DNA from: Oscillospiraceae bacterium
GTDB taxonomy: Bacteria; Bacillota; Clostridia; Oscillospirales; Oscillospiraceae
Reading direction: 5' to 3'
Length of the DNA stretch: 64,000 nucleotides
Assembly: GCA_031262405.1 (NCBI GenBank)
Contig: JAISHS010000033.1
Coordinates: 10,863-74,862 of the forward strand
Position numbers and translations under genes: made by a program. Shown in pieces: positions 3,508 to 60,233 of this stretch. Each line of letters opens with the position of its first letter. Position 1 is the first letter of the stretch. The notes under the pieces are model-generated. The model saw only the letters and a list, made by a program, of their open reading frames with translations. It ran no database searches and was not told the DNA's origin.

Positions 3508-4343
3508 ACTATTTGGGGCTTGACGAGCTACTGCTCTCCTCGCTGCGCGAGGACCTTGGCGGAGGGGACATAACGACCGAGTGCTGCGTTGCCGAGGACG
3601 CCGTCTCCGGCGGGCGCTTTGTCGCGAAGGCTGACGGGGTAATCTGCGGCCTTGCCGTCGCGGCGCGGGTGTTTGCGCTGCTTGACAGGAAAATCGTGTT
3701 CACGCCGAGAACGCTCGACGGCGAGCGTGTATCGACGGGCGAGGTCATCGCCGAGATTGAAGGCCCGTCGCGCGGGATTTTAACGGGCGAGCGGCTGGCG
3801 CTCAATCTCTTGCAGCATTTAAGCGGCGTCGCGACGATGACGGCGCAGGCGGCGTCTCAGATTAGCGGCACCGGCGCGAAAATCGTTGACACGCGCAAGT
3901 GCACGCCGGGTCTGAGGGTTTTGGAAAAATACGCCGTGCGCGTGGGCGGGGGAAGTAATCACCGCTTTAATCTCTCTGACGGCGTGCTCATAAAGGACAA
4001 CCACATCGCCGCGGCAGGCTCGATTAGCTCTGCGGTTTCGGCGGCGAAGGCCACAGTACCGCACACTATGAAGATTGAGGTGGAGGTCTCCTCGCTCGAG
4101 GGCGTGAGGGAGGCTCTTGACGCGGGGGCGGATATTATCATGCTCGACAACATGGACTGCGCCGCGATGAGCGAAGCTGTGAGCCTGATTGACTCTCGCG
4201 CTCTTACCGAGGCCTCCGGGAATATGGGCGAGCGCGACCTGCGCGAGGTGGCGGAGACGGGAGTGGACTTTATTTCCATCGGCGCGCTGACGCATAGCGT
4301 GAAGGCGCTGGATATAAGCTTGCAGATAACAGATAAGAGATAA
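3504..4343 (+). CDS. nadC: Nicotinate-nucleotide (quinolinate) pyrophosphorylase
   Basis: Typical NadC length and motifs (ILTGERLALNLLQHLSGVAT, KDNHI, MLDNM). It is translationally coupled to nadB. The last 5 codons and the stop lie inside a heptamer array. Confidence 0.9.
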   Translation: MNYLGLDELLLSSLREDLGGGDITTECCVAEDAVSGGRFVAKADGVICGLAVAARVFALLDRKIVFTPRTLDGERVSTGEVIAEIEGPSRGILTGERLALNLLQHLSGVATMTAQAASQISGTGAKIVDTRKCTPGLRVLEKYAVRVGGGSNHRFNLSDGVLIKDNHIAAAGSISSAVSAAKATVPHTMKIEVEVSSLEGVREALDAGADIIMLDNMDCAAMSEAVSLIDSRALTEASGNMGERDLREVAETGVDFISIGALTHSVKALDISLQITDKR

Positions 4344-4358
4344 GAGATATTAGATAAT
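4324..4358 (+). repeat. Tandem heptamer array (5 units): agataac agataag agataag agatatt agataat
   Basis: Read directly. The nadC stop TAA (4341-4343) is in unit 3. Confidence 0.9.
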
Positions 4359-4374
4359 TTTCACAATTTGTTTG

Positions 4375-4402
4375 TTGCTTTTAATCCAATTTATGTTATA
4401 AT
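4375..4402 (+). promoter_or_regulatory. Sigma-A-like promoter upstream of hpf (TTGCTT-16-TATAAT, with TG upstream of the -10)
   Basis: Hexamers read directly. The -10 lies in the left arm of the 4394-4425 palindrome. Confidence 0.4.
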
Positions 4403-4425
4403 GTCAGTAGGCTGACATTATAACA
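4394..4425. repeat. Perfect 14-bp AT-rich palindrome (tgttataatgtcag tagg ctgacattataaca)
   Basis: Read directly. Confidence 0.85.
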
Positions 4426-4593
4426 GCAGATCGGCACGATTCGCTCTCCGGCTTCGCCGGAAACCGCGAACGATGCCAATTATACCAAATTGCTACGCAA
4501 TTATGGTATAATGGCTGTTAGTGAACCCCAAACAGGGCTGCGACGGGCTGATTTTTGTAGCGCGTCAGGCCCCTAAAGGAAGGAGTAAACAGT

Positions 4594-5127
4594 ATGAAAT
4601 TTACAATTACCGAAAAGAAACTGCGCGTGTCGGACGAGATCAAGCAGTATGCCGAGCGCAAGCTCGGAAAGATTGACAAATTCTTCAAGGGCGAGGCGGA
4701 GGCTTTCTTGACCTTCGGCGCCGAGCGCGGGCGTTACAGCGCCGAGGTGACGATCGAGAACAACGGCACCTATTACCGCGTGAGCGAGAGCACCCACGAT
4801 ATGCGCGCGACTATCGACTCGGCCGTCGCGGCGATTGAGCGGCAAATCCGCAAAAACAAGACCAGACTCGAGAAGCGTCTGCGCGAGGGAGTGTTTGATA
4901 AGGACGCCGGAGCGGCTGAGTTTGACGACACGCCGGAGGAGCGCGACTTTGAGATTATCCGCGCCAAAAAGTTCCCCATCAAGCCCATGACCATTGAGGA
5001 GGCCATTTTGCAGATGAATCTGCTGGAGCACGAATTCTTTGCCTTTAAGGATCAAGACAACGGCAATGCCTTCTCCGTCGTATACCGCAGAAAGAGCGGC
5101 GGCTACGGGCTGATCAGCGACGTTTAA
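4594..5127 (+). CDS. hpf: Ribosome hibernation promoting factor, long form (RaiA/HPF family)
   Basis: MKFTITEKKLRVSDEIKQYAERKL matches the HPF N-domain. The C-terminal dimerisation domain is KPMTIEEAILQMNLLEHEFFAFKD. The RBS is aaggaagga. Confidence 0.9.
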   Translation: MKFTITEKKLRVSDEIKQYAERKLGKIDKFFKGEAEAFLTFGAERGRYSAEVTIENNGTYYRVSESTHDMRATIDSAVAAIERQIRKNKTRLEKRLREGVFDKDAGAAEFDDTPEERDFEIIRAKKFPIKPMTIEEAILQMNLLEHEFFAFKDQDNGNAFSVVYRRKSGGYGLISDV

Positions 5128-5237
5128 AGCATATTTTTGTAAAGACCGATTTTTGAATAGTTTTACCTCATTTGGTTATCCTAAGGCTGATACCAATACG
5201 CGGGAGAGCGTTTTTCGCGTAAAAAAGGAGTGCTAAA

Positions 5238-5450
5238 ATGAGGTTAATTGACAGAATCGCCATGATTCTTATAATCATAGGCGGTATCTACTGGGGGCTT
5301 ATCGGCCTGTTTCAGTATGATTTGGTCGCCGGGCTCTTCGGGGGTCAGGACGCCACGATCAGCCGTATAATCTATACGCTTGTGGGTCTGTCCGCGCTGT
5401 GGTGCATATCACTGCTCTTCCGCGCCCGCGACTACGAAGAGGCAGAGTAA
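5238..5450 (+). CDS. DUF378 family small membrane protein
   Basis: 70 aa with two TM segments. IGGIYWGLIGLF...DLVAGLFGG is the DUF378 signature. Confidence 0.7.
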   Translation: MRLIDRIAMILIIIGGIYWGLIGLFQYDLVAGLFGGQDATISRIIYTLVGLSALWCISLLFRARDYEEAE

Positions 5451-5458
5451 AAGAGAAT

Positions 5459-7627: not shown

Positions 7628-9717
<2,090 letters not shown>

Positions 9718-11858: not shown

Positions 11859-11917
11859 GGGGGGATTCCGGGTCAAGCCCGGAATGACGGTGGAGTCGCA
11901 TGGAATGACGGTGGAGT
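11859..11917 (+). repeat. REP-like hairpin unit plus a 16-nt tandem duplication of its 3' flank
   Basis: ggggggattccgggtcaagcccggaatgacggtggagt, then cgcat, then ggaatgacggtggagt. Confidence 0.85.
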
Positions 11918-13970: not shown

Positions 13971-15353
13971 CTACTCCAATTCCTGTACAATCTTGCGGAA
14001 GCACTCGCCCCGCTGCATGAAGTTTTTAAATTTGTCGAAGGATGAGCAGGCGGGCGAGAGGATTACAATGTCGCCGTCCTTGGCGCTTTTCGACGCCGCG
14101 AGAACGGTCTCGGTGAAGTCGTCGATGACATAAATCGGCAGGGTGAGACGGTTGTAGCCCGGGGTGTCGAGCACCGCCTGTTTTATGCGCTCGGCGGTCT
14201 CGCCGGTGAGATAGAGCGCCTTTACGCGCTCGACAATCTCCGTGCCCAGAGCGTCGAAGGGAATGTGCTTATCGTGTCCCCCGGCGATGAGAATCGGCTT
14301 TACCTTGGTAAAGCAGCGCAGCCCCGCGATTGTGCGCGTGGGCGAGGAGGCTATTGAGTCGTTGTAATAGCGCACCCCGCGAAGAGAGCGCACCAGCTCG
14401 ATTCTGTGGGGCACTCCGGGGAAGGTGCGGGCGACATGGCGGAAGGCGCTGTCTGGGATATAGCCGTCGAGGGCGGCATAAGCCGCCAGGTAGTTGTCGA
14501 TGTTGTGGCGGCCGGGGATAAGTATAACCGCGGCGGGCATAAGCTCATTCACCTCATAGTTGCGCGCGGAATACATAACCTCCTCGAGGCAGAAGGCCCC
14601 CGAGGGCACGGAATGGGTGTTGCTGAAAAGCCGCACCTCGGCGCGGGTCTCCTCCGCGAAGCGGGCGCAGTGCTCATCGTCTGCGTTGAGAACCAAGCGG
14701 CAGGAGGCGTCCTGATTGAGGAAGATGCTGCGCTTGGCGCCTACATAGTCCTCAAAATCGGGGTGGACGTCCAGATGATTCGGCGAGACGTTGGTTATAA
14801 CCGCGATATCCGGGCGGCATACCATGCTGTGCAGCTGAAAGCTCGACAGCTCCAAGACGGCAAAGTCCGAGGGGCTCATCTCCGGCACGCGGCTCAGCAG
14901 CGGCGCGCCGATGTTGCCGCCGAGAAAGACGGTGTATCCGGCTTCTTTGAGAAGCTCTGAGATTATTGTTGTGGTTGTGGTCTTGCCGTCGCTGCCCGTG
15001 ACGGCGATAGTCTTGCAGGGGCAGACGGCGAAAAAGACCTCCATCTCGCTCGTGACTATGCTGCCGCGCTCGCTTGCGCGCCTTAGCTCCGGTGTGAAGG
15101 GGTGCAGCCCCGGTGTGCGAAAGATTACGTCCTCGGTGAGATCGTCTAAATATCCCGCGCCAAGAACGAGCTTCACCCCGGCGGCGCTCAGCGGCGCAAA
15201 GTCCTCAAAGTCGCGCTCTTCGCGTTTATCGCGCACTGTAGGCTCAAGGCCGCGCTCCAAGAGCAGCTTCACCAGCGGGATGTTTGAAACGCCGTAACCC
15301 ACCACCGCTATGCTCTTGCCGGAGAGGGAGCCAAAATATTCATCCAAGGTCAT
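13971..15353 (-). CDS. murD: UDP-N-acetylmuramoylalanine--D-glutamate ligase
   Basis: VVGYGVSN Rossmann-like N-terminus and P-loop GSDGKTTTTT. The start is taken at MTLDEYF. Confidence 0.85.
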   Translation of the reverse strand: MTLDEYFGSLSGKSIAVVGYGVSNIPLVKLLLERGLEPTVRDKREERDFEDFAPLSAAGVKLVLGAGYLDDLTEDVIFRTPGLHPFTPELRRASERGSIVTSEMEVFFAVCPCKTIAVTGSDGKTTTTTIISELLKEAGYTVFLGGNIGAPLLSRVPEMSPSDFAVLELSSFQLHSMVCRPDIAVITNVSPNHLDVHPDFEDYVGAKRSIFLNQDASCRLVLNADDEHCARFAEETRAEVRLFSNTHSVPSGAFCLEEVMYSARNYEVNELMPAAVILIPGRHNIDNYLAAYAALDGYIPDSAFRHVARTFPGVPHRIELVRSLRGVRYYNDSIASSPTRTIAGLRCFTKVKPILIAGGHDKHIPFDALGTEIVERVKALYLTGETAERIKQAVLDTPGYNRLTLPIYVIDDFTETVLAASKSAKDGDIVILSPACSSFDKFKNFMQRGECFRKIVQELE

Positions 15354-15760
15354 AAAGATCTCCATCCTTTTATATCAATCGGGCGCAAACCCTAATACTA
15401 ATATCTGCCAAGGTATTATATCGTAATATGCAAAATTTTACAACACTAATATGCCGAGAGCTTTTTGTGTCCTAAGGGGAAGCAAAGAATTGTTGTCAAA
15501 AAGTCTTGCATAAATTTGGTGAATGAGTTAAAGTGTGTGAGGCGACGAGGGTCCGCCGGACGCGCAGGTGTATCCGATGGGTTGCATCACGGCGCCGGAT
15601 TCAGGCCGGAACGACGAAAGGATCATTGAGAGTCCCTTCGCCGATCCGACCTGTAATAGCTATCGTGACATTTCAGAGCTGCCCGCGCATATCTTCAGTG
15701 AGATGGTACATCTTTTCAAGGTGTATTAGGCCTTGGAGGAAAAAGAAGGCAGAATTTTTC

Positions 15761-15789
15761 TTGCGCGAAATCCGAAAGTAATGTACAAT
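15761..15789 (+). promoter_or_regulatory. Sigma-A-like promoter for rpe (TTGCGC-17-TACAAT, TG immediately upstream)
   Basis: Hexamers read directly. A ~160-nt leader with two hairpins follows. Confidence 0.4.
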
Positions 15790-15949
15790 GGACACGTGGT
15801 ATGCCCAGAAGCTCGGGGACGGCAGCGGCCCGTTGCCGTCCCCGTATATAAAAGCCTTCGCTTGCGCTCCGGCTATAAGATACTATGCCGCGCCGGAGCT
15901 TATCGTCACTCAGTGGACAAGCAGCGGCCTCACGGGAGGACAACGATTC

Positions 15950-16612
15950 ATGATTAAAATTGCCCCATCTATTCTCACTGCGGATTTTGCGCGGCTGGAA
16001 CACGAGATAAAAGACCTAGAAATCGCGGGTGCAAATTATTTACATCTTGATATTATGGACGGCTGCTTCGCGCCCAACATTACCTTCGGCGCGCCTGTCG
16101 TCCGCTGCCTTCGTCCGATAACCGCGCTGCCCCTGGACGCCCACCTCATGGTCGAGCGTCCCGTGCGCTATGTGAGGGATTTCGTAGAGGCGGGAGCCGA
16201 TATTATCAATATACATGTCGAGTCCGACACTCATGAGAATATTCTCGCGGCGCTCAGCCAGATTAAGGCCGCGGGATTGCGCGCCGGACTGACGCTCAAG
16301 CCCTTTACCTGTCCCGCGGCGATTGATGAGTATCTGGAGCTTGTCGATCTGATCCTCGTTATGACGGTTGAGCCGGGCTTCGGCGGGCAGAAGTTCATGC
16401 CGGATATGCTGCATAAAATTGAGCGGCTTCGCAAGACGCTTGACTCACGGGGGCTCTCTGCGGAGCTTGAAGTAGACGGCGGCATCAACCCCGAGACGGC
16501 AAGGCTCTGCAGAGACGCCGGAGCGGACGTTTTCGTCGTGGGCAGCGCCCTGATAAAGCAGGACGACCGCGCGGCTTATATGAAAGAATTGAGAATAGCA
16601 ACTGATTTTTAG
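15950..16612 (+). CDS. rpe: Ribulose-phosphate 3-epimerase
   Basis: MIKIAPSILTADF is the canonical Rpe N-terminus, with RBS gggagga 8 nt upstream. The 54-codon upstream extension in the ORF track is not Rpe-like. Confidence 0.9.
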   Translation: MIKIAPSILTADFARLEHEIKDLEIAGANYLHLDIMDGCFAPNITFGAPVVRCLRPITALPLDAHLMVERPVRYVRDFVEAGADIINIHVESDTHENILAALSQIKAAGLRAGLTLKPFTCPAAIDEYLELVDLILVMTVEPGFGGQKFMPDMLHKIERLRKTLDSRGLSAELEVDGGINPETARLCRDAGADVFVVGSALIKQDDRAAYMKELRIATDF

Positions 16613-16624
16613 GAGAAACCGACC

Positions 16625-17224
16625 ATGGCATATTTCCCCGCACCGCTGGAAAACCTCATAGACTGCTTCGCCGCCCTGCCGGGAATCGGCAAAAAGAGCG
16701 CCCAGCGCCTTGCCTTTCATGTCCTCTCCCTTCCGGAGGGGCGCGCCGAGGCCTTCGCGGCGGCAATTATGGAGGCCAAGAGCAGCGTTCACACCTGCCC
16801 CGTCTGCCAGAATCTCACGGACGGCGAACGCTGCGCTATATGTGAGGACGACCGGCGCGACAGCACTCTTATCTGTGTCGTCGCGGAGCCGCGCGATGTG
16901 CTCTCCTTCGAGCGCGCTCGGGAATTCGGCGGGGTCTATCATGTGCTGCACGGGGTGATGAGCCCCATGAACCGCATCGGGCCGGACGATTTGAAGATTT
17001 CGGAGCTTGTCGAGCGCATCGCCGGAGGGCAGGTGCGCGAAGTGATTATGGCGACGAACCCCGATACGGAGGGCGACACCACGGCGATGTATATTTGGCG
17101 GCTGCTGAAGCCCTTCGGCGTCAAGGTCACGCGTCTTGCCTACGGCGTGCCCGTCGGGGCGAACCTTGAATATGCCGACGAAGCCACTTTAGCGCGCGCG
17201 CTGGAGGGGCGACGGGAGATGTGA
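16625..17224 (+). CDS. recR: Recombination protein RecR
   Basis: HhH N-terminus LPGIGKKSAQRLAF, Zn finger CPVCQNLTDGERCAIC and a Toprim domain. Confidence 0.9.
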   Translation: MAYFPAPLENLIDCFAALPGIGKKSAQRLAFHVLSLPEGRAEAFAAAIMEAKSSVHTCPVCQNLTDGERCAICEDDRRDSTLICVVAEPRDVLSFERAREFGGVYHVLHGVMSPMNRIGPDDLKISELVERIAGGQVREVIMATNPDTEGDTTAMYIWRLLKPFGVKVTRLAYGVPVGANLEYADEATLARALEGRREM

Positions 17225-17242
17225 GCGCGGCGCGGCGCGCGC

Positions 17243-17295
17243 AGATAATAGATAATAGATAATAGATAGATGTTGTCGCGCGGAGCGCGACAACA
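17243..17295 (+). repeat. Heptamer array (agataat x3, agataga) plus a 10-bp GC hairpin tgttgtcgcg/cgcgacaaca
   Basis: Read directly. It lies 19 nt after the recR stop. Confidence 0.9.
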
Positions 17296-17407
17296 TTATA
17301 AAAGTGTACTCGCGTGGGGCGAGTAAATCAGAAATTTTCATTATATTCGCGAAAATATCGGGATATAATGTGTTTGCTACATAACAACTTAAGGAGAAAA
17401 TTTTTTA

Positions 17408-19066
17408 ATGGCGGCAAAACTAAAGATAATTCCTCTTGGCGGTCTCAATGAGATTGGCAAGAATTTAACCGTGTACGAATACGGGGACGATATTTTGGTC
17501 GTAGACTGCGGCCTGGGCTTCCCTGATGAAGAGATGTACGGGGTTGACATTGTCATACCCGATATCACGTATCTCGTGCAGAACAAGGAGAAAATCCGCG
17601 CCTTCGTGTTCACCCACGGACACGAGGACCACATAGGGGCTATCCCCTATGTCCTGCGGCAGATAGACGCGCCGATTTACGCCACGCGCTTGACGGCGGG
17701 GCTCATTGAGATTAAATTGCAGGAGCACGGGCTGCTCGAGACCACGAAAATCGTCACCCTCGAGGCCGGCGAGAGCTTCCGCGCGGGGGTCTTCGGTGTA
17801 GAGCTGATTCATGTTAACCACAGCATTCCGGACTCCGTTGCGCTCGCGATTAAGACGCCGATTGGCATGATTGTCCACACCGGCGACTTTAAAATAGACG
17901 TTACGCCCATAGATATCGACCTCATCGACCTCACGCGCTTCGGCGAGCTGGGCAAGCAGGGCGTACTCATGCTACTCTCGGACTCGACGAACGTCGAGAA
18001 GCCCGGGCACTCGGACTCTGAGCGCAAGGTTGGCGCGCGCTTTGACCAGCTCTTTAAGGACTGCGACAAGCGGATTATAATCACGACCTTCGCCTCAAAT
18101 GTCCACAGGGTGCAGTCTATCATAAACAGCGCCGCGAAATACGGCAGGCGCGTCGCGATAACCGGACGCAGCATGGAGAACATTATGCGCGTCTCGACGG
18201 AGCTGGGCTATATGAAGGTTCCCAAGGACACGCTCATCGACATCAACCAGATTTCGCAGGTGCCGCGCGACAAGCTTGTTATCATAACCACCGGCAGTCA
18301 GGGCGAGAGTATGTCCGCGCTATACCGCATGGCGTTTTCCGGGCACAGGCAGGTTGAGATTACAAGCTCTGACCGCGTGATTATCTCCGCTTCGGCGATT
18401 CCGGGCAACGAGAACACGATTAGCCGCGTCATAAACGAGCTGTTCCTCAAGAGCGCGGAGGTTATTTACGACCGCTTAGACGAGCTGCACGTCTCCGGCC
18501 ACGCCTGCATGGAGGAGCTGAAGATGATGCTCGCGCTCGTCAGACCGAAGTTCTTCATGCCGGTGCACGGCGAACAGAGGCATCTGCACCGCCACGCGGA
18601 GCTGGCGCGGTTCATGGGCGTCGAGCCCAGCCATATTGTAATCGGCGATCTGGGTAAGATTGTCGAGGTGACACGCAAGAGCGCAAAGCTTGCCGGAAGC
18701 GTCACGGCGGGCAGAGTTCTCGTGGACGGCACCGGCGTCGGCGACGTGGGCAGTGTTGTGCTCCGCGACCGGCGGCATCTGGCTCAGGACGGAATGCTCG
18801 TCGTGGTTATGACTCTCTCGGCGGAGGACTCGACCCTCATCTCGGGGCCGGACATCATCACGCGCGGCTTCGTCTATGTCAAGGAGTCCGACGCGCTCAT
18901 GGAGGAGCTAAAGCGCGTGGTGCTCGAGAGTCTCGACGGCTGCGAGCGCTGCAACATCACCGACTGGGCGACCATCAAGGCGAAGGTGAAGGCGAATCTC
19001 TCCGGCTATCTGTATAAGCAGACCAAGCGCAGCCCGATGATCCTGCCGGTAATCATGGAGGTTTAA
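17408..19066 (+). CDS. rnj: Ribonuclease J
   Basis: Metallo-beta-lactamase motif THGHEDHIG, a beta-CASP domain and an RNase J C-terminal domain. 552 aa. Confidence 0.9.
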   Translation: MAAKLKIIPLGGLNEIGKNLTVYEYGDDILVVDCGLGFPDEEMYGVDIVIPDITYLVQNKEKIRAFVFTHGHEDHIGAIPYVLRQIDAPIYATRLTAGLIEIKLQEHGLLETTKIVTLEAGESFRAGVFGVELIHVNHSIPDSVALAIKTPIGMIVHTGDFKIDVTPIDIDLIDLTRFGELGKQGVLMLLSDSTNVEKPGHSDSERKVGARFDQLFKDCDKRIIITTFASNVHRVQSIINSAAKYGRRVAITGRSMENIMRVSTELGYMKVPKDTLIDINQISQVPRDKLVIITTGSQGESMSALYRMAFSGHRQVEITSSDRVIISASAIPGNENTISRVINELFLKSAEVIYDRLDELHVSGHACMEELKMMLALVRPKFFMPVHGEQRHLHRHAELARFMGVEPSHIVIGDLGKIVEVTRKSAKLAGSVTAGRVLVDGTGVGDVGSVVLRDRRHLAQDGMLVVVMTLSAEDSTLISGPDIITRGFVYVKESDALMEELKRVVLESLDGCERCNITDWATIKAKVKANLSGYLYKQTKRSPMILPVIMEV

Positions 19067-19121
19067 GGGCAGATAATAGATATTAGATATTAGATATAAT
19101 GAGCCGCGCATTGCGCGGCTC
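19062..19121 (+). repeat. Heptamer array (tttaagggc, agataat, agatatt x2, agatata) plus hairpin gagccgcgc/gcgcggctc
   Basis: Read directly. The RNase J stop TAA (19064-19066) is in the left flank of the element. Confidence 0.9.
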
Positions 19122-19170
19122 AGTTTGAATGTAATGTTGTGTTGGCTTGGAATTATGGGGAGTAATGACT

Positions 19171-19593
19171 ATGAAAGCAACTGATAAGCGCGGCAGGTGG
19201 GTTATGATTGCAACATTTATCCTGTTAGGGCTGTCGTTGTGGGGAAATGTTGTTCAAGCGACTTGGCCAGAGAAGGAGTATTCCATCGTTGGCACTTTCA
19301 CTGAGAAGAGCGAGGTGCTGCCGCCGGATAGGTACTACTATGCCTTCGTGTCTGACGGCACGTTTCAATTTTATCAAAATGGAGTCGTTCTCGGGAGTGG
19401 CAATTATTCTCTATTGGATGAGGCGGAAGGGATATACGCCATCGAGGACTTCCATCGAATAGATGGTGATTACCTGCTTATGTTCCGGGACGGCAAGCTG
19501 TATCGCTTGGGAAACGGATCCTACGTTGTATATGAAAAAATCATAGACTCACCGCAGCTTTTGGGCGACGACGCACCACGCTACGTGGAATAA
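19171..19593 (+). CDS. Hypothetical membrane-anchored or secreted protein
   Basis: N-terminal hydrophobic segment WVMIATFILLGLSLWGNVV. RBS ggggag lies 8 nt upstream of ATG 19171. G+C looks lower than its neighbours. I recognised no family. Confidence 0.5.
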   Translation: MKATDKRGRWVMIATFILLGLSLWGNVVQATWPEKEYSIVGTFTEKSEVLPPDRYYYAFVSDGTFQFYQNGVVLGSGNYSLLDEAEGIYAIEDFHRIDGDYLLMFRDGKLYRLGNGSYVVYEKIIDSPQLLGDDAPRYVE

Positions 19594-19602
19594 GGAGAAT
19601 AT

Positions 19603-20010
19603 ATGAAAAACATTGTACTTTACTATTCGTTTACGGGGCATAGTCGGGAGTTTGCGGAGGCTTTCGCGAAGGAGCACGGCTATGAGGCGACCGAGGTGAC
19701 GACGCCGAAAAAGCACGGCATGGCGTATGCCTTTATCATCGGCTGCCCGAAGTCGCTCTCCGGCGGCTCCGTCGCGATTAAGCCGCTCGCGCTGAGCCTT
19801 GAGGACGTGGACGAGGTTCACGTTTTCGCGCCCGTCTGGGCAGGCTGCTGCGCTCCGGCGATGAACACCGCGCTCAAACAGCTTCCGAAGGGCACGAAGG
19901 TCTATATGCACATGGTCTCCTCCGGCGGCGAGAGCAACCGCTCTATGATTGAGGGTTATTTGGAGCATTGGGGGCTCAATCTCGCGGGCTTCGAGGACAT
20001 AAAGGGCTGA
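19603..20010 (+). CDS. Flavodoxin-like protein
   Basis: MKNIVLYYSFTGHSREFAE is a flavodoxin-type FMN phosphate loop. 135 aa. Confidence 0.65.
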   Translation: MKNIVLYYSFTGHSREFAEAFAKEHGYEATEVTTPKKHGMAYAFIIGCPKSLSGGSVAIKPLALSLEDVDEVHVFAPVWAGCCAPAMNTALKQLPKGTKVYMHMVSSGGESNRSMIEGYLEHWGLNLAGFEDIKG

Positions 20011-20035
20011 ATTTTGCATAGCGCGTCGAAATTGC

Positions 20036-20063
20036 TTGACAAGCCTGTTAAATAATGTATAAT
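20036..20063 (+). promoter_or_regulatory. Strong sigma-A promoter of the rpsF operon (TTGACA-16-TATAAT)
   Basis: Both consensus hexamers were read directly. Confidence 0.7.
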
Positions 20064-20180
20064 ATTAAGGCTTGCTCTTAGGGGCTAGGGATTCAAACCC
20101 GTGTCGCCTGTCGGCGCCTCTAGGCAAGCTATCCTTGCTCATGCTCAGACATGGGCCACAGTCCAGAAGGAGGTGCTCAA
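20064..20180 (+). promoter_or_regulatory. 5' leader of rpsF (candidate S6:S18-binding autoregulatory leader)
   Basis: A ~115-nt GC-rich leader lies between the consensus promoter and rpsF. An rpsF-leader RNA motif is known in Firmicutes. I did not verify the structure. Confidence 0.35.
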
Positions 20181-20477: not shown

Positions 20478-20488
20478 GGGAGGAGCTT

Positions 20489-20941: not shown

Positions 20942-20996
20942 TTGAGGGCTTGCTGTTACAATTACAACAATTAAATAACGATAGGAGGTAAAAACC

Positions 20997-21254: not shown

Positions 21255-21273
21255 GTAGTCTGAATTTATAACC

Positions 21274-21316
21274 AAAAGTTGGAGCACGGCGAGAGCTGTG
21301 CTCCAACTTTTATTTT
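21274..21316 (+). terminator. Rho-independent terminator of rpsF-ssb-rpsR
   Basis: agttggagcac / gtgctccaact stem followed by ttttatttt. Confidence 0.8.
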
Positions 21317-22215: not shown

Positions 22216-22953
22216 ATGCGGTTTTTCAGTGAGTTAAAATTAAAGTTTGATTTGGCGGTGCGGCCGCTGCTGGAGAAGCTGGGGCTGCTTGAGACCCCGG
22301 GGATAAACTACATAGGCGGCAGCGAGACCCTTCCGCCGCCGCTTCCGCGCGATGAGGAGGAGGAGGCGCTTGAAGCACTCTCCGAGGGCAGCGACGCGGC
22401 GAAGCGTCTGCTCATTGAGCACAATCTGCGGCTCGTGGTGTATATTTCGCGCCGCTTTGAGAATACGGGCGTGGGGCTGGAGGATCTCATTTCCATCGGG
22501 ACGATTGGGCTTATCAAGGCGATCAATACCTTCAACTCGGAGAAGAAGATAAAGCTGGCGACTTATGCCTCGCGCTGCGTCGAGAACGAGATTTTAATGC
22601 ACCTGCGGAAAATAAGCTCGCAGAAGTCGGAGGTCTCGCTCGACGAGCCGCTCAACACCGACTGGGACGGAAATGAGCTGCTGCTCTCCGACGTCTTGGG
22701 TACGGACGGGGACGAGATTTCGCGCCCGCTGGAGGACGACGCGGACAAACGAATGCTGATGGATGCGGTGTTTTCGCTGGCAGAGCGCGAGCGGAGCATT
22801 ATTATAATGCGCTTCGGGCTGCTGGGCTCCTCGGAGTATACGCAGAAAGAGGTCGCGGACAAAATGGGCATCTCGCAGTCCTATATCAGCCGACTAGAGA
22901 AGCGGATAATCTCGAGACTGAAGCGGGAAATGTTAAGGGCAGATAATAGGTAA
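22216..22953 (+). CDS. sigE: Sporulation sigma factor SigE (pro-sigma-E)
   Basis: Pro-sequence followed by [12 protein letters not shown]. Sigma-70 regions 2 and 4 are present ([12 protein letters not shown]). The last codons lie in a heptamer array. Confidence 0.9.
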
Positions 22954-22975
22954 GAGATATTAGATAATAGATATT
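22933..22975 (+). repeat. Heptamer array (ttaagggc, agataat, aggtaag, agatatt, agataat, agatatt) with a degenerate GC segment after it
   Basis: Read directly. The sigE stop TAA (22951-22953) is in unit 2. Confidence 0.9.
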
Positions 22976-23071
22976 TTTATAGAGAGTCGCGCGCGGCGGG
23001 GTTAGATAGGTGCTTATCCTGTCAGAAAATTGTCAACAGTATTTAAATTTTATTGCTAACCATTTAAACGC

Positions 23072-24487: not shown

Positions 24488-24543
24488 AGAAGACAGTGGC
24501 GAGAGGACTTAAGGCAGATATTATGAGTCGCGCGGGGCGCGAC
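24488..24543 (+). repeat. Heptamer array (agaagac agtggcg agaggac ttaaggc agatatt) plus hairpin gtcgcgc/gcgcgac
   Basis: Read directly. Confidence 0.8.
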
Positions 24544-24558
24544 GGGAATATAATAAAT

Positions 24559-24626
24559 AAGGCGTCGCGAAGCCGCGACGCCTTATATCTTTCTATCTTT
24601 TATCTATTATCTCTTATCTTTTATCT
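24559..24626 (-). repeat. Minus-oriented element: six heptamers (agataaa agataag agataat agataaa agataga aagatat) plus an 11-bp hairpin aaggcgtcgcg/cgcgacgcctt
   Basis: Read directly. The P-type ATPase stop (24621-24623) is in the first unit. Confidence 0.9.
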
Positions 24627-30703: not shown

Positions 30704-30757
30704 ACAATTGACAATTGACAATTGAGAATTGACAATTGTGGAGTCGCCAAAGGCGAC
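30704..30757 (+). repeat. Heptamer array (acaattg x3, agaattg, acaattg) plus hairpin gtcgcc/ggcgac
   Basis: Read directly. The array creates four overlapping TTGACA hexamers. Confidence 0.9.
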
Positions 30758-39345: not shown

Positions 39346-39381
39346 TTGAATAATGCAGTCGCTGTGCGACTAATTATTCAA
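39346..39381. repeat. Extended hairpin ttgaataat-gc-agtcgc tgt gcgact-a-attattcaa
   Basis: Read directly. It has the same GTCGC core as the other hairpins. Confidence 0.8.
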
Positions 39382-39384
39382 CGA

Positions 39385-39435
39385 AAATAATAAATAAAAA
39401 ATAATAGATAATAATTATTGAGTCGCTAAAGCGAC
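39385..39435 (+). repeat. Heptamer array (aaataat aaataaa aaataat agataat aattatt) plus hairpin gagtcgc/gcgac
   Basis: Read directly. Confidence 0.8.
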
Positions 39436-41604: not shown

Positions 41605-43164
41605 ATGGCTCCTGACGTAGTTCAGAGATTGGTGGCCATGGTCATCTACATGCTCGCAGTCATCGCGATTGGAATTGCGTTTTCTAAACGCGCGAACTCC
41701 AGCTCCGAGCATTACTTTTTAGGCGGGCGCAGCTTAGGCCCGTGGGTCACGGCGATGAGCGCGGAGGCTTCGGATATGTCCGGCTGGCTGCTCATGGGTC
41801 TGCCTGGGGTCGCATATTGGTGCGGCATCGCCGACGCCGCCTGGACGGCGATCGGTCTGGCAGTGGGAACTTATATCAACTGGCTTATCGTCTCTAAGCG
41901 GCTTCGCCGCTACAGCGTTAAGGCCAACAACTCGATTACCCTTCCGGAATTTTTCTCGAACCGCTTCCACGAGAAGAAGAAGGTCATTGAGACAATTTCT
42001 GCGGTGTTTATCCTCGTGTTCTTCACGGTCTATGCCGCCAGCTGTCTTGTCACCTGCGGAAAGCTCTTTTCGACGGTGTTCGGCGCCAGCTACATCAGCA
42101 TGATGCTTGTCGGCGCGGCCTTCGTCCTGCTGTATACCCTGCTGGGGGGCTTCCTTGCCGAGAGCGCCTCGGACTTTATGCAGGCCTTGGTTATGATCGT
42201 TGCCCTCACGGTGGTCGTAGTTATCGCCACCACGCAGGCGGGGGGCTTCGGGGCCGTTATTGACAATGCCAAGAGCATTGACGGCTTCTGGGACTTCTTC
42301 GGAATTGCCTCTCCGACGGTGGAGAACGGCACTCAGCTCGTCGAGGGCACTAAACCTCTCTTCGGAGCCGCCGGAAGCTATGGGCTGCTCACGATTCTCT
42401 CGACAACCGCCTGGGGTCTTGGCTACTTCGGAATGCCGCAGGTGCTTCTGCGCTTCATGGCTATTCGCAGCGAGCACGAGCTCAAGCGCTCCCGCCGCAT
42501 AGCGACCGTCTGGGTCGTGATCTCTCTGGCGATCGCCGTGTTCATCGGCGTCGTGGGGCGCGCGCTCTATCCGACGGAACTGCTGACCGCGTCAACGGCG
42601 GAGAATGTTTTCATCCTGCTCTCGACAAATCTCTTGCCTCCGCTGATCGGCGGCTTAGTTATGGCGGGAATTCTTGCCGCGGCTATCAGCTCTTCGGACT
42701 CCTATTTGCTCATCGCCTCGAGCTCCGTTGCGAAGAACATCTTCCAAGGGCTCTTTAAGAAGAACGCGACTGACAAGCAGGTCATGACCGTTTCGAGGAT
42801 AACCCTTGTTGCGATAGCGGTAATCGCCGCTGTAATCGCGCTCGACGAGAACAGCGTAATCTTCACCATCGTCTCCTTTGCCTGGGCGGGCTTCGGCGCA
42901 ACCTTCGGACCGCTCATGCTCTTCTCGCTGTTCTGGAAGCGCATAAACCGCGCCGGAGCAATCGCCGGAATGATCGGCGGCGGCGGAATGGTCTTCTTCT
43001 GGAAGCTGTTCATCCGCGTTCAATTTGCCGGAACGGTGCTGGATATCTATGAGCTGCTCCCGGCCTTCATCTTCTCGAGCATACTCATCGTTGTGGTGTC
43101 CTGCCTCACGGCAGAGCCCTCCGACGAGATAAAAGCGGAGTTCGACGCAGTGAAGATCGGATAA
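41605..43164 (+). CDS. putP: Sodium/proline symporter (SSS family)
   Basis: YFLGGRSLGPWVTAMSAEASDMSGWLLMGLPG matches the PutP N-terminal signature. About 13 TM segments. Confidence 0.85.
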   Translation: MAPDVVQRLVAMVIYMLAVIAIGIAFSKRANSSSEHYFLGGRSLGPWVTAMSAEASDMSGWLLMGLPGVAYWCGIADAAWTAIGLAVGTYINWLIVSKRLRRYSVKANNSITLPEFFSNRFHEKKKVIETISAVFILVFFTVYAASCLVTCGKLFSTVFGASYISMMLVGAAFVLLYTLLGGFLAESASDFMQALVMIVALTVVVVIATTQAGGFGAVIDNAKSIDGFWDFFGIASPTVENGTQLVEGTKPLFGAAGSYGLLTILSTTAWGLGYFGMPQVLLRFMAIRSEHELKRSRRIATVWVVISLAIAVFIGVVGRALYPTELLTASTAENVFILLSTNLLPPLIGGLVMAGILAAAISSSDSYLLIASSSVAKNIFQGLFKKNATDKQVMTVSRITLVAIAVIAAVIALDENSVIFTIVSFAWAGFGATFGPLMLFSLFWKRINRAGAIAGMIGGGGMVFFWKLFIRVQFAGTVLDIYELLPAFIFSSILIVVVSCLTAEPSDEIKAEFDAVKIG

Positions 43165-43221
43165 CAGATAAGAGATAATAGATAATAGATAGATGGTGGT
43201 CGCGCTTGAGCGCGACCACCA
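43159..43221 (+). repeat. Heptamer array (ggataac agataag agataat agataat agataga) plus a 12-bp hairpin tggtggtcgcgc/gcgcgaccacca
   Basis: Read directly. The putP stop TAA (43162-43164) is in unit 1. Confidence 0.9.
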
Positions 43222-43471
43222 TTAAAAAATCTTCGTCCCAGCTACGTACCCACGGCAGTAGCGACTGTTACGAAGTAAAGGAGCGACCCTGACCGCGTAG
43301 CGGCACGCTCCAACAGAGCGAAGCGTCATTGGGCTCCTTTCTTTGCGGGGAGTCAAGAGGGGAGCTTTTCTTTCCGCAGAAAGAAAGCTTCCCTTTTGCG
43401 CCGTCCGCGCAGGACGCCTCGCCGTGGCAACGGCGCGTCCTTGCTGTCGCTGTAGCGACAGCTAATACTAA

Positions 43472-47425: not shown

Positions 47426-47430
47426 TTAAT

Positions 47431-47484
47431 GAACAATGAACATTGAACATTGAACAATGAATAGTTGTTGAGTCGCTGCGCGAC
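47431..47484 (+). repeat. Heptamer array (gaacaat gaacatt gaacatt gaacaat gaatagt) plus hairpin gtcgc/gcgac
   Basis: Read directly. Confidence 0.9.
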
Positions 47485-47558: not shown

Positions 47559-47587
47559 CGTCATTGCGGGCTTGACCCGCAATCTCC
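47559..47587 (-). repeat. REP-like hairpin unit (reverse): cgtcattgcgggcttgacccgcaatctcc
   Basis: Read directly. Confidence 0.9.
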
Positions 47588-47658: not shown

Positions 47659-47714
47659 GTCCCCCGTCCTTCGTCCCTCGTAATCTGTCCTCTGTCTTCT
47701 CGCCTCTGTCCTCT
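47659..47714 (-). repeat. GC-rich heptamer array, 8 units (minus strand: agaggac agaggcg agaagac agaggac agattac gagggac gaaggac gggggac)
   Basis: Read directly. Confidence 0.85.
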
Positions 47715-47718
47715 GGAA

Positions 47719-50176: not shown

Positions 50177-50211
50177 AGATAATAGATATTAGATATTAGA
50201 TAATAGATATT
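50177..50211 (+). repeat. Heptamer array agataat agatatt agatatt agataat agatatt
   Basis: Read directly. Confidence 0.9.
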
Positions 50212-50222
50212 CAAACAAAAAC

Positions 50223-50251
50223 GTATAATGGATTGCGTGAATCCATTATAC
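50223..50251 (-). terminator. Terminator of the lipoprotein operon
   Basis: 12-bp stem gtataatggatt / aatccattatac followed on the minus strand by gtttttgtttg. Confidence 0.65.
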
Positions 50252-51369: not shown

Positions 51370-51404
51370 ATTATCTGTCCTCTGTCCTCTCGCCTCTGTC
51401 CTCT
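51370..51404 (-). repeat. Heptamer array (minus strand: agaggac agaggcg agaggac agaggac agataat) between two lipoprotein cistrons
   Basis: Read directly. It is near-identical to part of 47680-47714. Confidence 0.9.
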
Positions 51405-51408
51405 GGTT

Positions 51409-58809: not shown

Positions 58810-58847
58810 GTAAGGAGCCGCGAGCGGCTCCTTACTCATAAGCTTAT
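58798..58847. repeat. Perfect 23-bp palindrome containing the response-regulator stop codon
   Basis: ataagcttatgagtaaggagccg cgag cggctccttactcataagcttat. Confidence 0.9.
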
Positions 58848-58851
58848 CTGA

Positions 58852-58920
58852 AGATAATAGATAATAAATAATAGATAATAGATAAAAGCTAGGAGTTGCG
58901 CTAATGCGCGACTCCTAGCT
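58852..58920 (+). repeat. Heptamer array (agataat x2, aaataat, agataat, agataaa) plus a 15-bp hairpin agctaggagttgcgc/gcgcgactcctagct
   Basis: Read directly. Confidence 0.9.
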
Positions 58921-58924
58921 ATGT

Positions 58925-60055
58925 CTATTTATCTTCATCTGCCTCGATACTTTCCAGTAGTTTTAAAAGGCTCTTGTGAACTGCGTTCGGGTCCAGAGTC
59001 GCCTTCACCTGAGCGGTTGTGTTCAGCACTTCTTCCTTCCGCTGCTCGTAGGCGTCGATTAGGGCTTGCTGCGCCCCCTGATTGGGATTTGCTCCGACTT
59101 TGTTTCCCACACTCAGCGCCGCAATGAAATCTGACATCCCGCGGTAATACTCCATATTCAGCTTACCGTCTTTCATCGGACTCAGTCCCTTGCCTACGCT
59201 GTTTTCGAATAAGTATTGATAGTCTATTACCAAATCCATCGGTGCGGGTTCGCCTCCGGCGGAGACAGTGTTGCGCCTCAGATAGCCGGGGATGGGGTCG
59301 TTTTTATAAATCCCGTCTACCTTGTAGCCCTGCTCACGCAAGGTCTCTTTCTTATAGAGCTTCTGCACCGCCTCTAGAAACGCCTCTTTGTCGGCGCTGT
59401 CGGTGATGAGTTCGTCCGCTATGCTCTGCGCGTTTAATAGAGCGGTCTCGCGCAGCGTGACGCGCTCCGTGAGCGTAGCCGCCTTCTCGCCGACAACTCT
59501 ACCCTCCAAGCCCTCTACAAGGTCTCTTGCGATGTTATATTCATTATCTGTGTAGGCGTTAAGCGCATTTCGCATATTGGTTCTGGCGATTCCATCGGAA
59601 TTTTTCGTTCTTAAATATTCCTTTTCGGCTTCGTCCAAAATCGACCGTTGCTGAGCTTGAAAATCCTCTGTTGTCATTTTGAGCTGCCGAGCCATATCCG
59701 GGTCGTCAATGACGATGTCGACAAGCTCATTGAACTCACTTTGGCTCAATTCAATGCGCTCAAACTCGAAGATGGATTCCTCTTCGGTGAGCAAGCGAAA
59801 TAAAGGCTCCGACTCCTTGGCGGCTTCGGATTTCTGCCGCGCCTCATCCGAAATTTCAACTGTCGCCGCCGGTTCGTCGGTCGAGTCGAGCCGCTCGGCG
59901 TTTTTATTGTTCACCCAGCCGAGGTGCTTGCCGTTATTCGTCTTTCCGGATTCCTCCGTCGCCGGGGCCTCTTGTGTTTTCCGGCGAATAAGGGTCGTAT
60001 ACCCGCCCTTATAGCTCGTGATGCTCATGAGGTTCGTCATATCTATGGATAACAT
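58925..60055 (-). CDS. Hypothetical protein (376 aa, acidic, helical-looking, no signal peptide)
   Basis: A long ORF with coding-like composition but lower G+C. I recognised no family or motif. Confidence 0.55.
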   Translation of the reverse strand: MLSIDMTNLMSITSYKGGYTTLIRRKTQEAPATEESGKTNNGKHLGWVNNKNAERLDSTDEPAATVEISDEARQKSEAAKESEPLFRLLTEEESIFEFERIELSQSEFNELVDIVIDDPDMARQLKMTTEDFQAQQRSILDEAEKEYLRTKNSDGIARTNMRNALNAYTDNEYNIARDLVEGLEGRVVGEKAATLTERVTLRETALLNAQSIADELITDSADKEAFLEAVQKLYKKETLREQGYKVDGIYKNDPIPGYLRRNTVSAGGEPAPMDLVIDYQYLFENSVGKGLSPMKDGKLNMEYYRGMSDFIAALSVGNKVGANPNQGAQQALIDAYEQRKEEVLNTTAQVKATLDPNAVHKSLLKLLESIEADEDK

Positions 60056-60132
60056 AAGCCAATTCCTCCTTGCCTAATACTCTCCTATTTCGATTATCGG
60101 TTGATAGTTGGGTAAACTTAACTGTAAACGCA

Positions 60133-60173
60133 AAAACTCCGCAGCGATTTTCACCGCTGCGGAGTTTTGTTTT
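60133..60173. terminator. Bidirectional terminator
   Basis: 14-bp stem aaaactccgcagcg / cgctgcggagtttt with T-runs on both strands. Confidence 0.65.
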
Positions 60174-60177
60174 ATGT

Positions 60178-60233
60178 GTCGCGCTTTGCGCGACTCCACC
60201 TATCTATTATCTATTATCTTTTATCTATTATCT
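60178..60233 (-). repeat. Minus-oriented element: heptamers agataat agataaa agataat agataat agatagg plus hairpin gtcgcgc/gcgcgac
   Basis: Read directly. The DRTGG gene stop (60228-60230) is in the first unit. Confidence 0.9.

Follow-up and report, generated by a model that had tools for sequence, protein, structure and literature searches.

Tandem repeats of seven nucleotides are over-represented in many bacterial phyla, and no origin or function has been accepted for them since their first description in cyanobacteria in 1990, reportedly by Mazel, as short tandemly repeated repetitive (STRR) sequences. The intervening sequences (IVSs) of rRNA genes, which in known cases are substrates of RNase III, have an origin that is equally open. 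Heptad units have been described as TAACTGA in Beggiatoaceae, cyanobacteria and Bacteroidetes (PMC4679880), GGGAATC in Xanthomonas (PMC4692102) and TTTTGAA in Nostoc (bioRxiv 10.1101/2022.06.06.494920), and the known intergenic heptamer repeats reach hundreds of sets per genome with their function unexplained (PMC4679880, PMC4692102). Repetitive extragenic palindromic (REP) sequences are defined by a tetranucleotide, most often GTAG, joined to a palindrome, and are mobilised by a REP-associated tyrosine transposase (RAYT, or TnpA-REP) (PMC8266576). A 64-kb stretch of DNA from an Oscillospiraceae bacterium (GenBank assembly GCA_031262405.1, contig JAISHS010000033.1, positions 10,863 to 74,862; the whole stretch is called the window here) has a G+C content of 55.6% and carries dispersed copies of a composite in which heptads are fused to a hairpin. 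This composite can be read as a module of fixed polarity and size, with about five heptads (35 nt), a short purine-rich junction (..GGAG or ..TGAG) and a REP-like palindrome. Such modules link heptamer repeats and rRNA intervening sequences to a REP-like hairpin, a fixed polarity and a count of five units. About an even chance is given here to the reading that they are non-autonomous mosaic repeats of the REP or bacterial interspersed mosaic element (BIME) type, spread within the lineage by a trans-acting enzyme.

Tandem Repeats Finder (TRF; score at least 40) detects 14 period-7 arrays in the window and none in 20 dinucleotide-preserving shuffles, and no period other than 7 is enriched. The units run head to tail at all 14 sites, which are enriched in intergenic DNA and amount to about one site per 4.6 kb. 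The motif (AGATAWN)2AGATA, allowing up to two mismatches, has 27 overlapping matches against 0.01 expected. The palindrome GTCGC-N0-14-GCGAC, short, multicopy and largely extragenic, occurs 13 times against 2.9 expected; ten of the 13 are intergenic, and eight of these ten begin no more than 20 nt beyond the 3′ end of an array, for which the chance probability in 5.6 kb of intergenic DNA is ~1.6e-9. With 14 arrays against none in shuffles and eight of ten hairpins adjoining arrays, the array-hairpin composite reported in an earlier note on this DNA is real and non-random. Apart from some corrections, all 13 sites listed there have the content ascribed to them; both orientations are present (modules 6 and 13 lie on the minus strand), and the array length of about 35 bp is accurate, with runs of the AGATA core peaking at five units. 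The count of 13 was incomplete, two GGACAGA-type arrays on the minus strand (47684-47715 and 51374-51405) having been overlooked. AGATAAT-type units, claimed throughout, are found at most sites but not at 30704 (ACAATTG), 39385 (AAATAAT) or 47428 (GAACAAT). At 24488-24543 the hairpin is as described, but the array comprises a single AGATATT unit and a decayed copy of another heptad family, and the AT-rich palindrome at the first site is present, but at 4394-4425, 36 nt past the end given for that site. Contrary to the implied lack of any description, tandem heptanucleotide repeats between genes have been described as a class, though not explained (PMC4679880, PMC4692102). No description of the array-hairpin composite, or of heptad arrays in IVSs, was found in the literature, of which subscription journals were partly covered, so that this is not proof of absence.

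Runs of the AGATA core in the window comprise 112 singles, six doubles, no triples, three quadruples, six quintuples and one sextuple. TRF copy number at the 14 sites is 3.7-6.3 (4.6-5.4 for the ACAATTG, GAACAAT and GGACAGA arrays), and the mean over 66 arrays, from the window and 24 Clostridia loci, is 4.9 +/- 0.9. This distribution is unlike the decaying one expected of a slippage-driven microsatellite. Among 43 window units, positions 1-5 (AGATA) deviate in three of 215 cells (98-100% conserved), position 6 varies in 30% and position 7 in 37%; among 100 units of the Soudan_22 metagenome-assembled genome (MAG), position 7 is near-random (C25, A19, T39, G17) and most other positions are 94-100% conserved, the exception being position 3 (86%), which differs mainly in a terminal AGTTAAG unit. 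Units within one array are not homogenised. The base before the first unit is C in eight of nine AGATAA-type window arrays, and four window arrays end in AGATAGR. The two GGACAGA arrays are near-identical and both contain the odd unit GGCGAGA (CCAGAGGACAGAGGCGAGArGACAGAGGACAGAT), and module 5 holds a decayed copy; a common internal variant unit of this kind would be a sign of dispersal by copying. A three-frame stop cassette was rejected as the sole cause of the heptad sequence, since AGA is conserved as much as TAA and the GGACAGA, AGGGAAC and GAGGAGC arrays are free of stops.

Ten window arrays have a hairpin with a conserved core, xGAG-TCGCGC-loop-GCGCGA, always 3′ on the purine-rich strand. 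The consensus of the copies (alignment A1) is GGAG-TCGCGC-nnn-GCGCGA-C; 12 of 13 copies have the G that stands two bases before GTCGC and nine of 13 the A, giving xGAG. Loops and outer stems vary between copies, and the outer stems remain complementary (ATGTTG/CAACAT, TGGTGG/CCACCA, AGCTAGGAG/CTCCTAGCT, AAGGCG/CGCCTT); two compensatory changes also occur in the core itself, GCCGCGC/GCGCGGC in module 3 and GTCGCC/GGCGAC in module 7. Stems are 5-15 bp long with energies of -6.5 to -29.9 kcal/mol, the tails are not conserved in the alignment, and modules 1 and 11 have AT-rich hairpins from a different family. The earlier view that structure rather than sequence is conserved fails on the core GAGTCGCG..CGCGAC, which is conserved in sequence. 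The accompanying statement that the repeat does not resemble classical REP sequences likewise lacks support, as the hairpin follows the REP plan of tetranucleotide and palindrome (PMC8266576): a conserved xGAG stands immediately 5′ of a perfect palindrome of 12-14 nt whose loop is 3-4 nt long. Compared with GTAG, xGAG matches at the last two positions (AG), which are the most critical for cleavage (PMC8266576), but not at position 2. Modules 5 and 6 face each other in the manner of REP/inverted-REP doublets, the rRNA inserts described below are also inverted pairs, and further inverted module pairs are found outside the window, in loci L012, L066, L090, L104 and L111. Solo modules are asymmetric, with the array at one end and the hairpin at the other, and no direct duplication was seen at module flanks by inspection, so the combination of terminal inverted repeat and target-site duplication that marks a miniature inverted-repeat transposable element is lacking.

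Other small repeats often adjoin the modules. An inverted, REPIN-like GTAG doublet, GTAGGGGCGCGCATTGCGCGTCCGC, lies at 40475-40499 and 40524-40548, and its 13-nt core CGCGCATTGCGCG is identical to that of the module 3 hairpin; judged by its letters, the doublet hints at a RAYT-type system in the genome and at kinship of the module hairpins with REPs. A second dispersed palindromic repeat, GATTGCGGGTCAAGCCCGCAATGACG, has four copies in the window against none expected, and hairpins related to it occur near 9660, 40565 and 47630. The ligA-yunB junction has a 121-nt spacer with GATTGCGGGTCAAGCCCGCAATGACG in the window, compared with 0-18 nt in relatives, so that, measured against them, the spacer is an insertion.

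Modules also occur inside rRNA genes. A metagenome scan for an array together with GTCGCG gave 20 loci, of which two (L141 and L132, both from one sample) are of the window's family; by alignment to the Rfam LSU and SSU models, L141 is a 23S and L132 a 16S rRNA gene. The sample may or may not hold the window's species, and this result concerns metagenome contigs rather than the window. In L141 the loop at 23S model positions 1212-1219, which we take to be helix 45, an IVS site along with helix 25 and 16S variable region 1, is replaced by ~150 nt in the order (ACAGATA)x6, GAAGGA, GTCGCGCGGAGCGCGAC, spacer, GTCCGGCGAAGCCGGAC, ACCAC and an inverted array of five units. A second L141 insert, of 133 nt, occupies a loop near model position 1760 and has the same construction, and the insert of L132, 142 nt long and close to model position 80, contains AGATAAA units and GAGTCGCGCTTAGCGCGAC. 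Each insert is predicted to fold so that its two arrays form one long, interrupted stem that the hairpins cap (-83.6, -86.7 and -79.6 kcal/mol; z = -12.6, -9.6 and -11.7). The inserts are true insertions because the ancestral rRNA state is known and, as far as alignment and predicted fold can tell, they have the form of intervening sequences. Window module 2 has the very same 17-nt hairpin, GTCGCGCGGAGCGCGAC, as the L141 23S insert. Independent origin of the same 17-mer is not credible, which makes the intergenic modules and the rRNA inserts copies of a single family. Host stem arms occur twice around two of the inserts (CTCCATTC..GAATGGAG and CCAATCTC..GAGATTGG), an ambiguous pattern that could be a hairpin duplication.

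All 14 window arrays are intergenic or overlap last codons only, and the modules sit at transcription-unit boundaries, with none inside a tightly packed operon junction. Placement was counted over 20 sources, the window and 19 other Clostridia loci. Of 51 neighbours on the 5′ side of the purine-rich array, 37 are ends of co-oriented genes and 14 are starts of divergent ones (p = 0.002), and between co-directional genes the purine strand is sense in 25 cases and antisense in nine (p = 0.009). Median distances are 13 nt to the upstream stop codon and 178 nt to the following start codon, and the array lies nearer the stop in 20 of 25 cases (p = 0.004). In five cases in the window the stop codon is part of the array: unit 1 reads xGA TAA for the P-type ATPase, symporter and orf108 genes, and nadC and sigE extend six and four codons into the array, the Pfam domain of nadC ending right at the array start. 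Gene annotation is affected, since some housekeeping genes owe their stop codons and C-terminal residues to a module. Modules 7, 10 and 11 are antisense to their neighbours and module 8 is in a divergent region; read on the minus strand, modules 7 and 11 have the order upstream stop codon, hairpin, pyrimidine-rich array, Shine-Dalgarno (SD) sequence, start codon. The excess of structure 3′ over 5′ of arrays across lineages is weak (41 of 66, p = 0.07) because hairpins often stand on both sides of the array. Regardless of gene direction, 11 of 13 window modules carry the purine strand on + (p = 0.02), or 11 of 15 when the GGACAGA arrays are added (p = 0.12), and the + strand has a positive GC skew in genes of both orientations. 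A replication-oriented motif was considered and set aside, this bias being only suggestive and gene orientation fitting the larger data set better. A promoter was also dropped as a general role because most arrays follow stop codons, although hexamer matches exist (TTGACA in ACAATTG; GATAAT/TATTAT in AGATAAT) and module 11 sits where a promoter would be required.

The terminator cassette proposed in the earlier note is doubtful for the window genome. A GC-rich stem-loop does follow the stop codon, but the U-rich tract on the transcribed strand is missing from most of the hairpins (sense tails read AACAUUAU, AGUUUGAA and ACAUAAAA). Ordinary terminators occur elsewhere in the window. A scan for the terminator consensus over 20 kb (15000-34999) flagged module 6 on both strands but modules 2 and 3 on the opposite strand only; there the stem is followed by the array's T-rich complement. 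Since module tails are T-rich in the low-GC Soudan_22 MAG and mostly not so in the window genome, the stem-loop can act as a terminator in some lineages, and this is not its defining property. The usual target of terminator-seeking group II introns is a hairpin followed by a T-run; in locus L066 (6046-6393, minus strand) a group II intron begins immediately after the hairpin and TTTTTT of an AATGAAT x8 module, the array of which holds the upstream gene's stop codon, and the intron appears to have used the module stem-loop as a terminator-like homing site.

The modules are restricted to the window's lineage among its near relatives. Six related loci (L121-L126) retain the ligA-yunB-...-rpe-recR-rnj synteny with RNase J 81-87% identical, and their 86,916 bases hold no array of at least three heptads (TRF score at least 30), where ~19 arrays would be expected at window density; the only two doublets, of 2.1 and 2.4 copies, are both in L124 and were taken as chance. 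At the single corresponding site that was compared, downstream of rnj, L121, L122 and L124 have plain hairpin and T-run terminators, and the closest relative, L126 (87% RNase J), has no array there, its flanks being too diverged to define insertion boundaries. Exact-protein look-ups with recR, rnj, spoIIGA and rpsF, made for strain-level empty sites, returned only the same strain, with one sequencing run on record. A second assembly of that strain (L127, run SRR14710920) is identical at modules 2 and 3, and the two assemblies may not be independent. The L127 contig (1-50) ends inside module 2, an example of how modules break short-read assemblies.

A scan of species representatives with (AGATAWN)3AGATA gave no count for the source genome; the matches listed were mostly long Bacteroidota microsatellites and, among them, the same module design was found in many Clostridia loci. 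In the shared design, 4-6 purine-rich heptads, often preceded by a hairpin, lead into a purine-rich, SD-like junction (AGTTAAGG, GGTGGAG, AAGGTG) and a lineage-specific hairpin, and two modules often face each other. Heptads elsewhere include AGATAAN, AGTGAAT, AATGAAT, GAATTAA, CAGAGAA, GAGGAGC and AATTGAC, and the carriers are the Soudan_22 MAG (six loci), Gemmiger, Ruminococcus, Ruminococcaceae, Oscillospiraceae, Acutalibacteraceae and Subdoligranulum; one Armatimonadota MAG has AGGGAAC arrays. The Oscillospiraceae locus L024, with AATTGAC x4.6 and GTGTCGC-ttc-GCGACA, is close to window module 7. The 129 open reading frames (ORFs) flanking arrays in 22 other loci are housekeeping genes (tsf, frr, uppS, thyA, argS, pth, gyrB, rny and others), with no protein family enriched and no transposase near the arrays. 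Carriers include isolates (Gemmiger formicilis, Heliorestis), so that a cognate enzyme or binder, movement, and an effect on mRNA 3′ ends are all testable. Heptamer tracts of other kinds were also seen. In a Ruminococcaceae MAG (L104, 3465-3835), tracts of ~150 nt keep the 7-nt period while the unit drifts (TCAGGGG, ATAGGTA, TGAGGAG, AAAGTGG) and alternate with a constant hairpin, TAGGGACAAGCCTCGCTTGTCC, in a higher-order tandem. In Chryseobacterium sp. JUb7 (L044, ~4400-4475) an AGATATT array directly adjoins TAAACCC units, the plant-type telomere repeat, and many Bacteroidota loci have differing heptamer arrays side by side.

Coordinates are collected in Table 1. The gene map of the window is length-based, and Pfam searches of all its 63 ORFs and two alternative ORFs return ordinary housekeeping and sporulation functions, including nadB-nadC, hpf, ligA, yunB, rpe, recR, rnj, rpsF-ssb-rpsR, spoIIGA-sigE, a clpC-like gene, ABC transporters and two-component systems. 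The same searches find no transposase, in agreement with the earlier note, nor any integrase, reverse transcriptase or cas gene, and no gene for HutP, TRAP, a cold-shock domain (CSD), KH or ribbon-helix-helix (RHH) protein. No tRNA gene was found in the window, which is also without rRNA. Its sole Rfam match is a fluoride riboswitch (23101-23177, 44.6 bits), directly 5′ of a Na+/H+-exchanger-family gene (23180-24400) between modules 4 and 5; no Rfam family covers the modules at gathering threshold in the window and 15 other loci. Next to module 3, between rnj and rpsF, are two ORFs without Pfam match (19147-20019). Both are absent from L126, where rpsF follows rnj after ~150 nt, and the window thus carries an insertion of ~0.9 kb here relative to L126.

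Table 1. Positions and make-up of the modules, solo arrays and second palindromic repeat in the window, and of the rRNA inserts in metagenome contigs (contig positions)
Feature	Position	Strand	Array	Hairpin	Setting
Module 1	4324..4358	+	AGATAAN x5	no GTCGC type; AT-rich, 14 bp, 4394-4425	covers last 6 codons and stop codon of nadC
Module 2	17243..17297	+	AGATAAT x4 (17243-17270)	13 bp, ATGTTGTCGCGC-gga-GCGCGACAACAT	begins 18 nt past recR stop
Module 3	19071..19122	+	AGATAWT x4 (19071-19099)	GAGCCGCGC-att-GCGCGGCTC	begins 4 nt past rnj stop
Module 4	22941..23001	+	five heptads (22941-22975)	half only, GAGTCGCGCGCGGCGGGG, 22984-23001	array is last 4 codons and stop of sigE
Module 5	24488..24543	+	decayed GGACAGA-like array (24488-24508), TTAAGGC, one AGATATT	GTCGCGC-ggg-GCGCGAC (24527-24543)	inverted pair with module 6
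Module 6	24557..24626	-	AGATAAN x5 (24626-24592)	13 bp, AAGGCGTCGCG-gctt-CGCGACGCCTT (24586-24557)	unit 1 is stop codon of P-type ATPase gene
Module 7	30704..30757	+	ACAATTG x5	TGGA + GTCGCC-aaa-GGCGAC	antisense to flanking genes; on minus strand, between clpC-like stop codon and SD/GTG start of PHP-domain gene
Module 8	39358..39435	+	AAATAAT x4.3 (39385-39414), between two hairpins	A: AGTCGC-tgt-GCGACT (39358-39370); B: GAGTCGC-taaa-GCGAC (39422-39435)	divergent intergenic region
Module 9	43159..43223	+	five heptads	14 bp, TGGTGGTCGCGC-ttga-GCGCGACCACCA	unit 1 (GGATAAC) is stop codon of sodium:solute symporter gene
Module 10	47428..47484	+	GAACAWT x5	long AT-rich hairpin directly before array; after it TTGA + GTCGC-tgc-GCGAC (weak 5-bp stem)	640-nt intergenic region crowded with other repeats
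GGACAGA array	47684..47715	-	GGACAGA x4.6	no GTCGC hairpin	near-identical to 51374-51405
Module 11	50177..50251	+	AGATAWT x5 (50177-50211)	AT-rich, GTATAATGGATT..AATCCATTATAC (50223-50251)	minus strand: hairpin + T-run as canonical terminator, then array, then SD/ATG of response-regulator gene
GGACAGA array	51374..51405	-	GGACAGA x4.6		3 nt past stop codon; ends 32 nt before next start
Module 12	58852..58920	+	AGATAAT x5	15 bp, AGCTAGGAGTTGCGC-taat-GCGCGACTCCTAGCT; extra hairpin 58811-58834, 5′ of array	between convergent genes
Module 13	60178..60233	-	AGATAAN x5 (60233-60199)	TGGA + GTCGCGC-aaa-GCGCGAC (60194-60178)	unit 1 is stop codon of orf108; canonical terminator immediately downstream
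GATTGCGGGTCAAGCCCGCAATGACG	9692-9717	+			
GATTGCGGGTCAAGCCCGCAATGACG	11864-11889	+			
GATTGCGGGTCAAGCCCGCAATGACG	24456-24481	+			
GATTGCGGGTCAAGCCCGCAATGACG	47559-47584	-			
L141 insert region 1	185-352				one 1-kb 23S piece carries both L141 inserts
L141 insert region 2	812-972				
L132 insert region	2575-2750				16S

The modules match the REP/BIME type because they combine a short perfect palindrome, a tetranucleotide ending in AG and a conserved non-palindromic motif, and are extragenic, numerous and without an enzyme of their own. The mobile non-autonomous element suggested in the earlier note fits the array-free relatives, the near-identical GGACAGA copies with the same variant unit, and the module of the same kind in rRNA genes. 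Copies would have spread within the lineage by means of an enzyme encoded elsewhere, the leading candidate being a single-strand HUH/RAYT-type activity that recognises the xGAG-hairpin, with the heptads as iterated recognition units (iterons) that would be read one by one. They would survive where they are least harmful, namely at the ends of transcription units, beside existing hairpins, and as inverted pairs in the terminal loops of rRNA. After or across a stop codon, the TAA or TGA in the heptads would halt translation in all three frames; in rRNA helices, two arrays would pair into the long stem of an intervening sequence; and a module transcribed within a 3′ untranslated region would give an unstructured 35-nt spacer and a stable stem-loop that could block exonucleases or serve as a weak or opposite-strand terminator. 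Several points weigh against spread by a REP-type enzyme. Pfam searches found no RAYT or other mobilising enzyme within the 64-kb window, the module tetranucleotide is xGAG and not GTAG, and no target-site duplication, terminal inverted repeat or empty/filled polymorphism is definable, with one strain on record. The conserved positions 1-5, floating positions 6-7, and varying loops and outer stems also fit old copies under host-level selection for a cellular function; the sense-strand bias (25 versus 9, p = 0.009) could reflect a function at the RNA level and not tolerance; and very different heptads follow one plan, which is hard for a single sequence-specific enzyme. Nor does a REP-like origin explain the period of 7, the five units, the several heptads on one plan, the SD-like junction, the preceding C or the doubled host stem arms. 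The upkeep of AGATA with floating positions 6-7 could be due to a mobilising enzyme, a cellular protein binding in heptad register, or templated synthesis, and this range of causes is why the REP/BIME reading is held at even chances and a regulatory RNA is kept as a possible, if unlikely, contender.

In that contending explanation the modules are host regulatory RNAs. An oligomeric RNA-binding protein of the HutP, TRAP or cold-shock type would bind beside the stem-loop, each subunit taking one heptad in an NAG-N4 or AGAUAA-N register, and would set read-through, 3′-end formation or decay at the ends of many transcription units. HutP reads UAG every 7 nt (three UAG triplets with 4-nt spacing), and cold-shock proteins cover ~7 nt per domain. 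By analogy, the order of stop codon, iterated short motifs, hairpin and next gene is the layout of the hut attenuator, and the sense-strand bias, the closeness of arrays to stop codons, units that are each conserved at 5-6 of their 7 positions, leave one spacer position free and are not homogenised, and a length of ~5 units that is fixed in many lineages all point the same way; cold-shock, S1 and CsrA proteins have also been proposed for the TAACTGA heptads of Beggiatoaceae (PMC4679880). However, no HutP, TRAP, CSD or KH gene lies within the window, the heptad differs within one genome (AGATAAT, ACAATTG, GAACAAT, GGACAGA), 3-4 window modules are antisense or in a divergent region, and most hairpins lack a U-tract, module 13 being followed by a canonical terminator; moreover, close relatives have the same genes without modules, and insertion in rRNA is unexpected for a regulator of mRNA. 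A more speculative and rather unlikely proposal is that the array is made, or kept at five units, by the enzyme of the xGAG-hairpin, either a HUH/RAYT-like single-strand nuclease-ligase that would cut and join at staggered sites, the AG/CT found in nearly all heptads, or a reverse transcriptase copying a 6-7 nt template with one untemplated position; alternatively, an RNA-binding protein in heptad register would read the arrays as a genome-wide 3′-end code in Clostridia. If arrays were enzyme-made, a single enzymatic origin would account for both the heptamer repeats of bacteria and the intervening sequences of rRNA.

It is improbable that the arrays act at the DNA level, bound cooperatively by an RHH or similar dimer as nucleoid-organising or insulating sites beside a cruciform-prone palindrome. 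The omega repressor of pSM19035 binds runs of WATCACW heptads; the complementary unit TATCTNW has WATC in common with this heptad, ATTCACT (the complement of AGTGAAT, L037) matches it at six of seven positions, and the fixed length, the lack of homogenisation, and the + strand bias of the purine strand with its positive GC skew would suit such a site. The bias drops when the GGACAGA arrays are counted, orientation tracks gene direction over the 20 sources, arrays adjoin stop codons and not promoters, the same modules lie inside rRNA genes, pairing as RNA, and the window has no RHH gene. Ordinary microsatellites, in which polymerase slippage expands AT-rich sequence beside terminator hairpins to give neither an element nor a function, are quite improbable. 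In many bacterial genomes no class of long simple sequence repeats (SSRs) is more over-represented than the heptanucleotide one, slippage is said to favour 7-nt units (Mrazek 2007, as cited in PMC4679880), long pure heptamer arrays of many kinds occur among the matches listed in Bacteroidota and other phyla, and in L104 the period holds while the unit drifts. Slippage predicts pure units and a broad, variable copy number, however, and neither is seen here: copy number is bimodal (1-2 or 4-6, never 3) with no steady decay, adjacent units differ at positions 6-7, the array has a fixed polarity and junction to one specific hairpin, dispersed copies have common variant patterns, two assemblies of the strain (which may not be independent) are identical at modules 2 and 3, and the same kind of composite occurs in rRNA. 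Orphan CRISPR-like units, reading hairpin, 35 nt, hairpin as repeat-spacer-repeat, are the least probable of all. Hairpins often stand on either side of the 35-nt arrays, the hairpin starts of module 8 are 64 nt apart, and the L024 tail GATTGAAAT resembles the 3′ handle of CRISPR repeats, but the window has no regular repeat-spacer series, unique spacers or cas genes, the supposed spacers are repeats themselves and the tails are not conserved; without arrays of identical repeats or cas genes, this reading is effectively refuted.

The modules share contiguous 7-bp heptads with a conserved core and variable edges with the omega (RHH) operators of Inc18 plasmids, but the latter are plasmid promoter and centromere sites with 7-10 WATCACW heptads, no hairpin and no tie to gene ends. 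Like HutP and TRAP sites, they have iterated NAG-type motifs (with 7-nt spacing in hut) between a stop codon and a stem-loop, whereas those sites are single and operon-specific, with a U-tract terminator and a cognate gene nearby, and the modules recur about once per 4.6 kb with no cognate gene in the window. The L141 and L132 modules replace terminal helix loops with extended stems of 130-150 nt, as classical IVSs do; this form is seen in the rRNA contigs, while the window has no rRNA, and we know of no IVS described as built of heptad arrays or as a copy of an intergenic repeat family. With heptamer SSR and STRR sequences the modules have in common short tandem 7-nt runs (2-6 copies in Beggiatoaceae), a strongly intergenic location, a patchy spread and occasional inverted pairs. 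They differ in having about five copies fused in fixed polarity to a REP-like hairpin, in the several heptads that follow one plan, in their additional presence in rRNA, and in lying mainly at or over the upstream stop codon, unlike the Beggiatoaceae repeats, which stand just before start codons. From REP and BIME sequences they are set apart by xGAG in place of GTAG, by a Clostridia host, and by a tandem heptad array as the extra-palindromic part, which is undescribed for BIMEs. Features in common with REPs, BIMEs and REPINs are a 12-16 nt palindrome outside genes, its loop 3-4 nt long and a tetranucleotide ending in AG immediately before it, together with a high copy number, mosaics of palindrome and non-palindromic motif, inverted doublets, a location at gene 3′ ends and the lack of an internal transposase.

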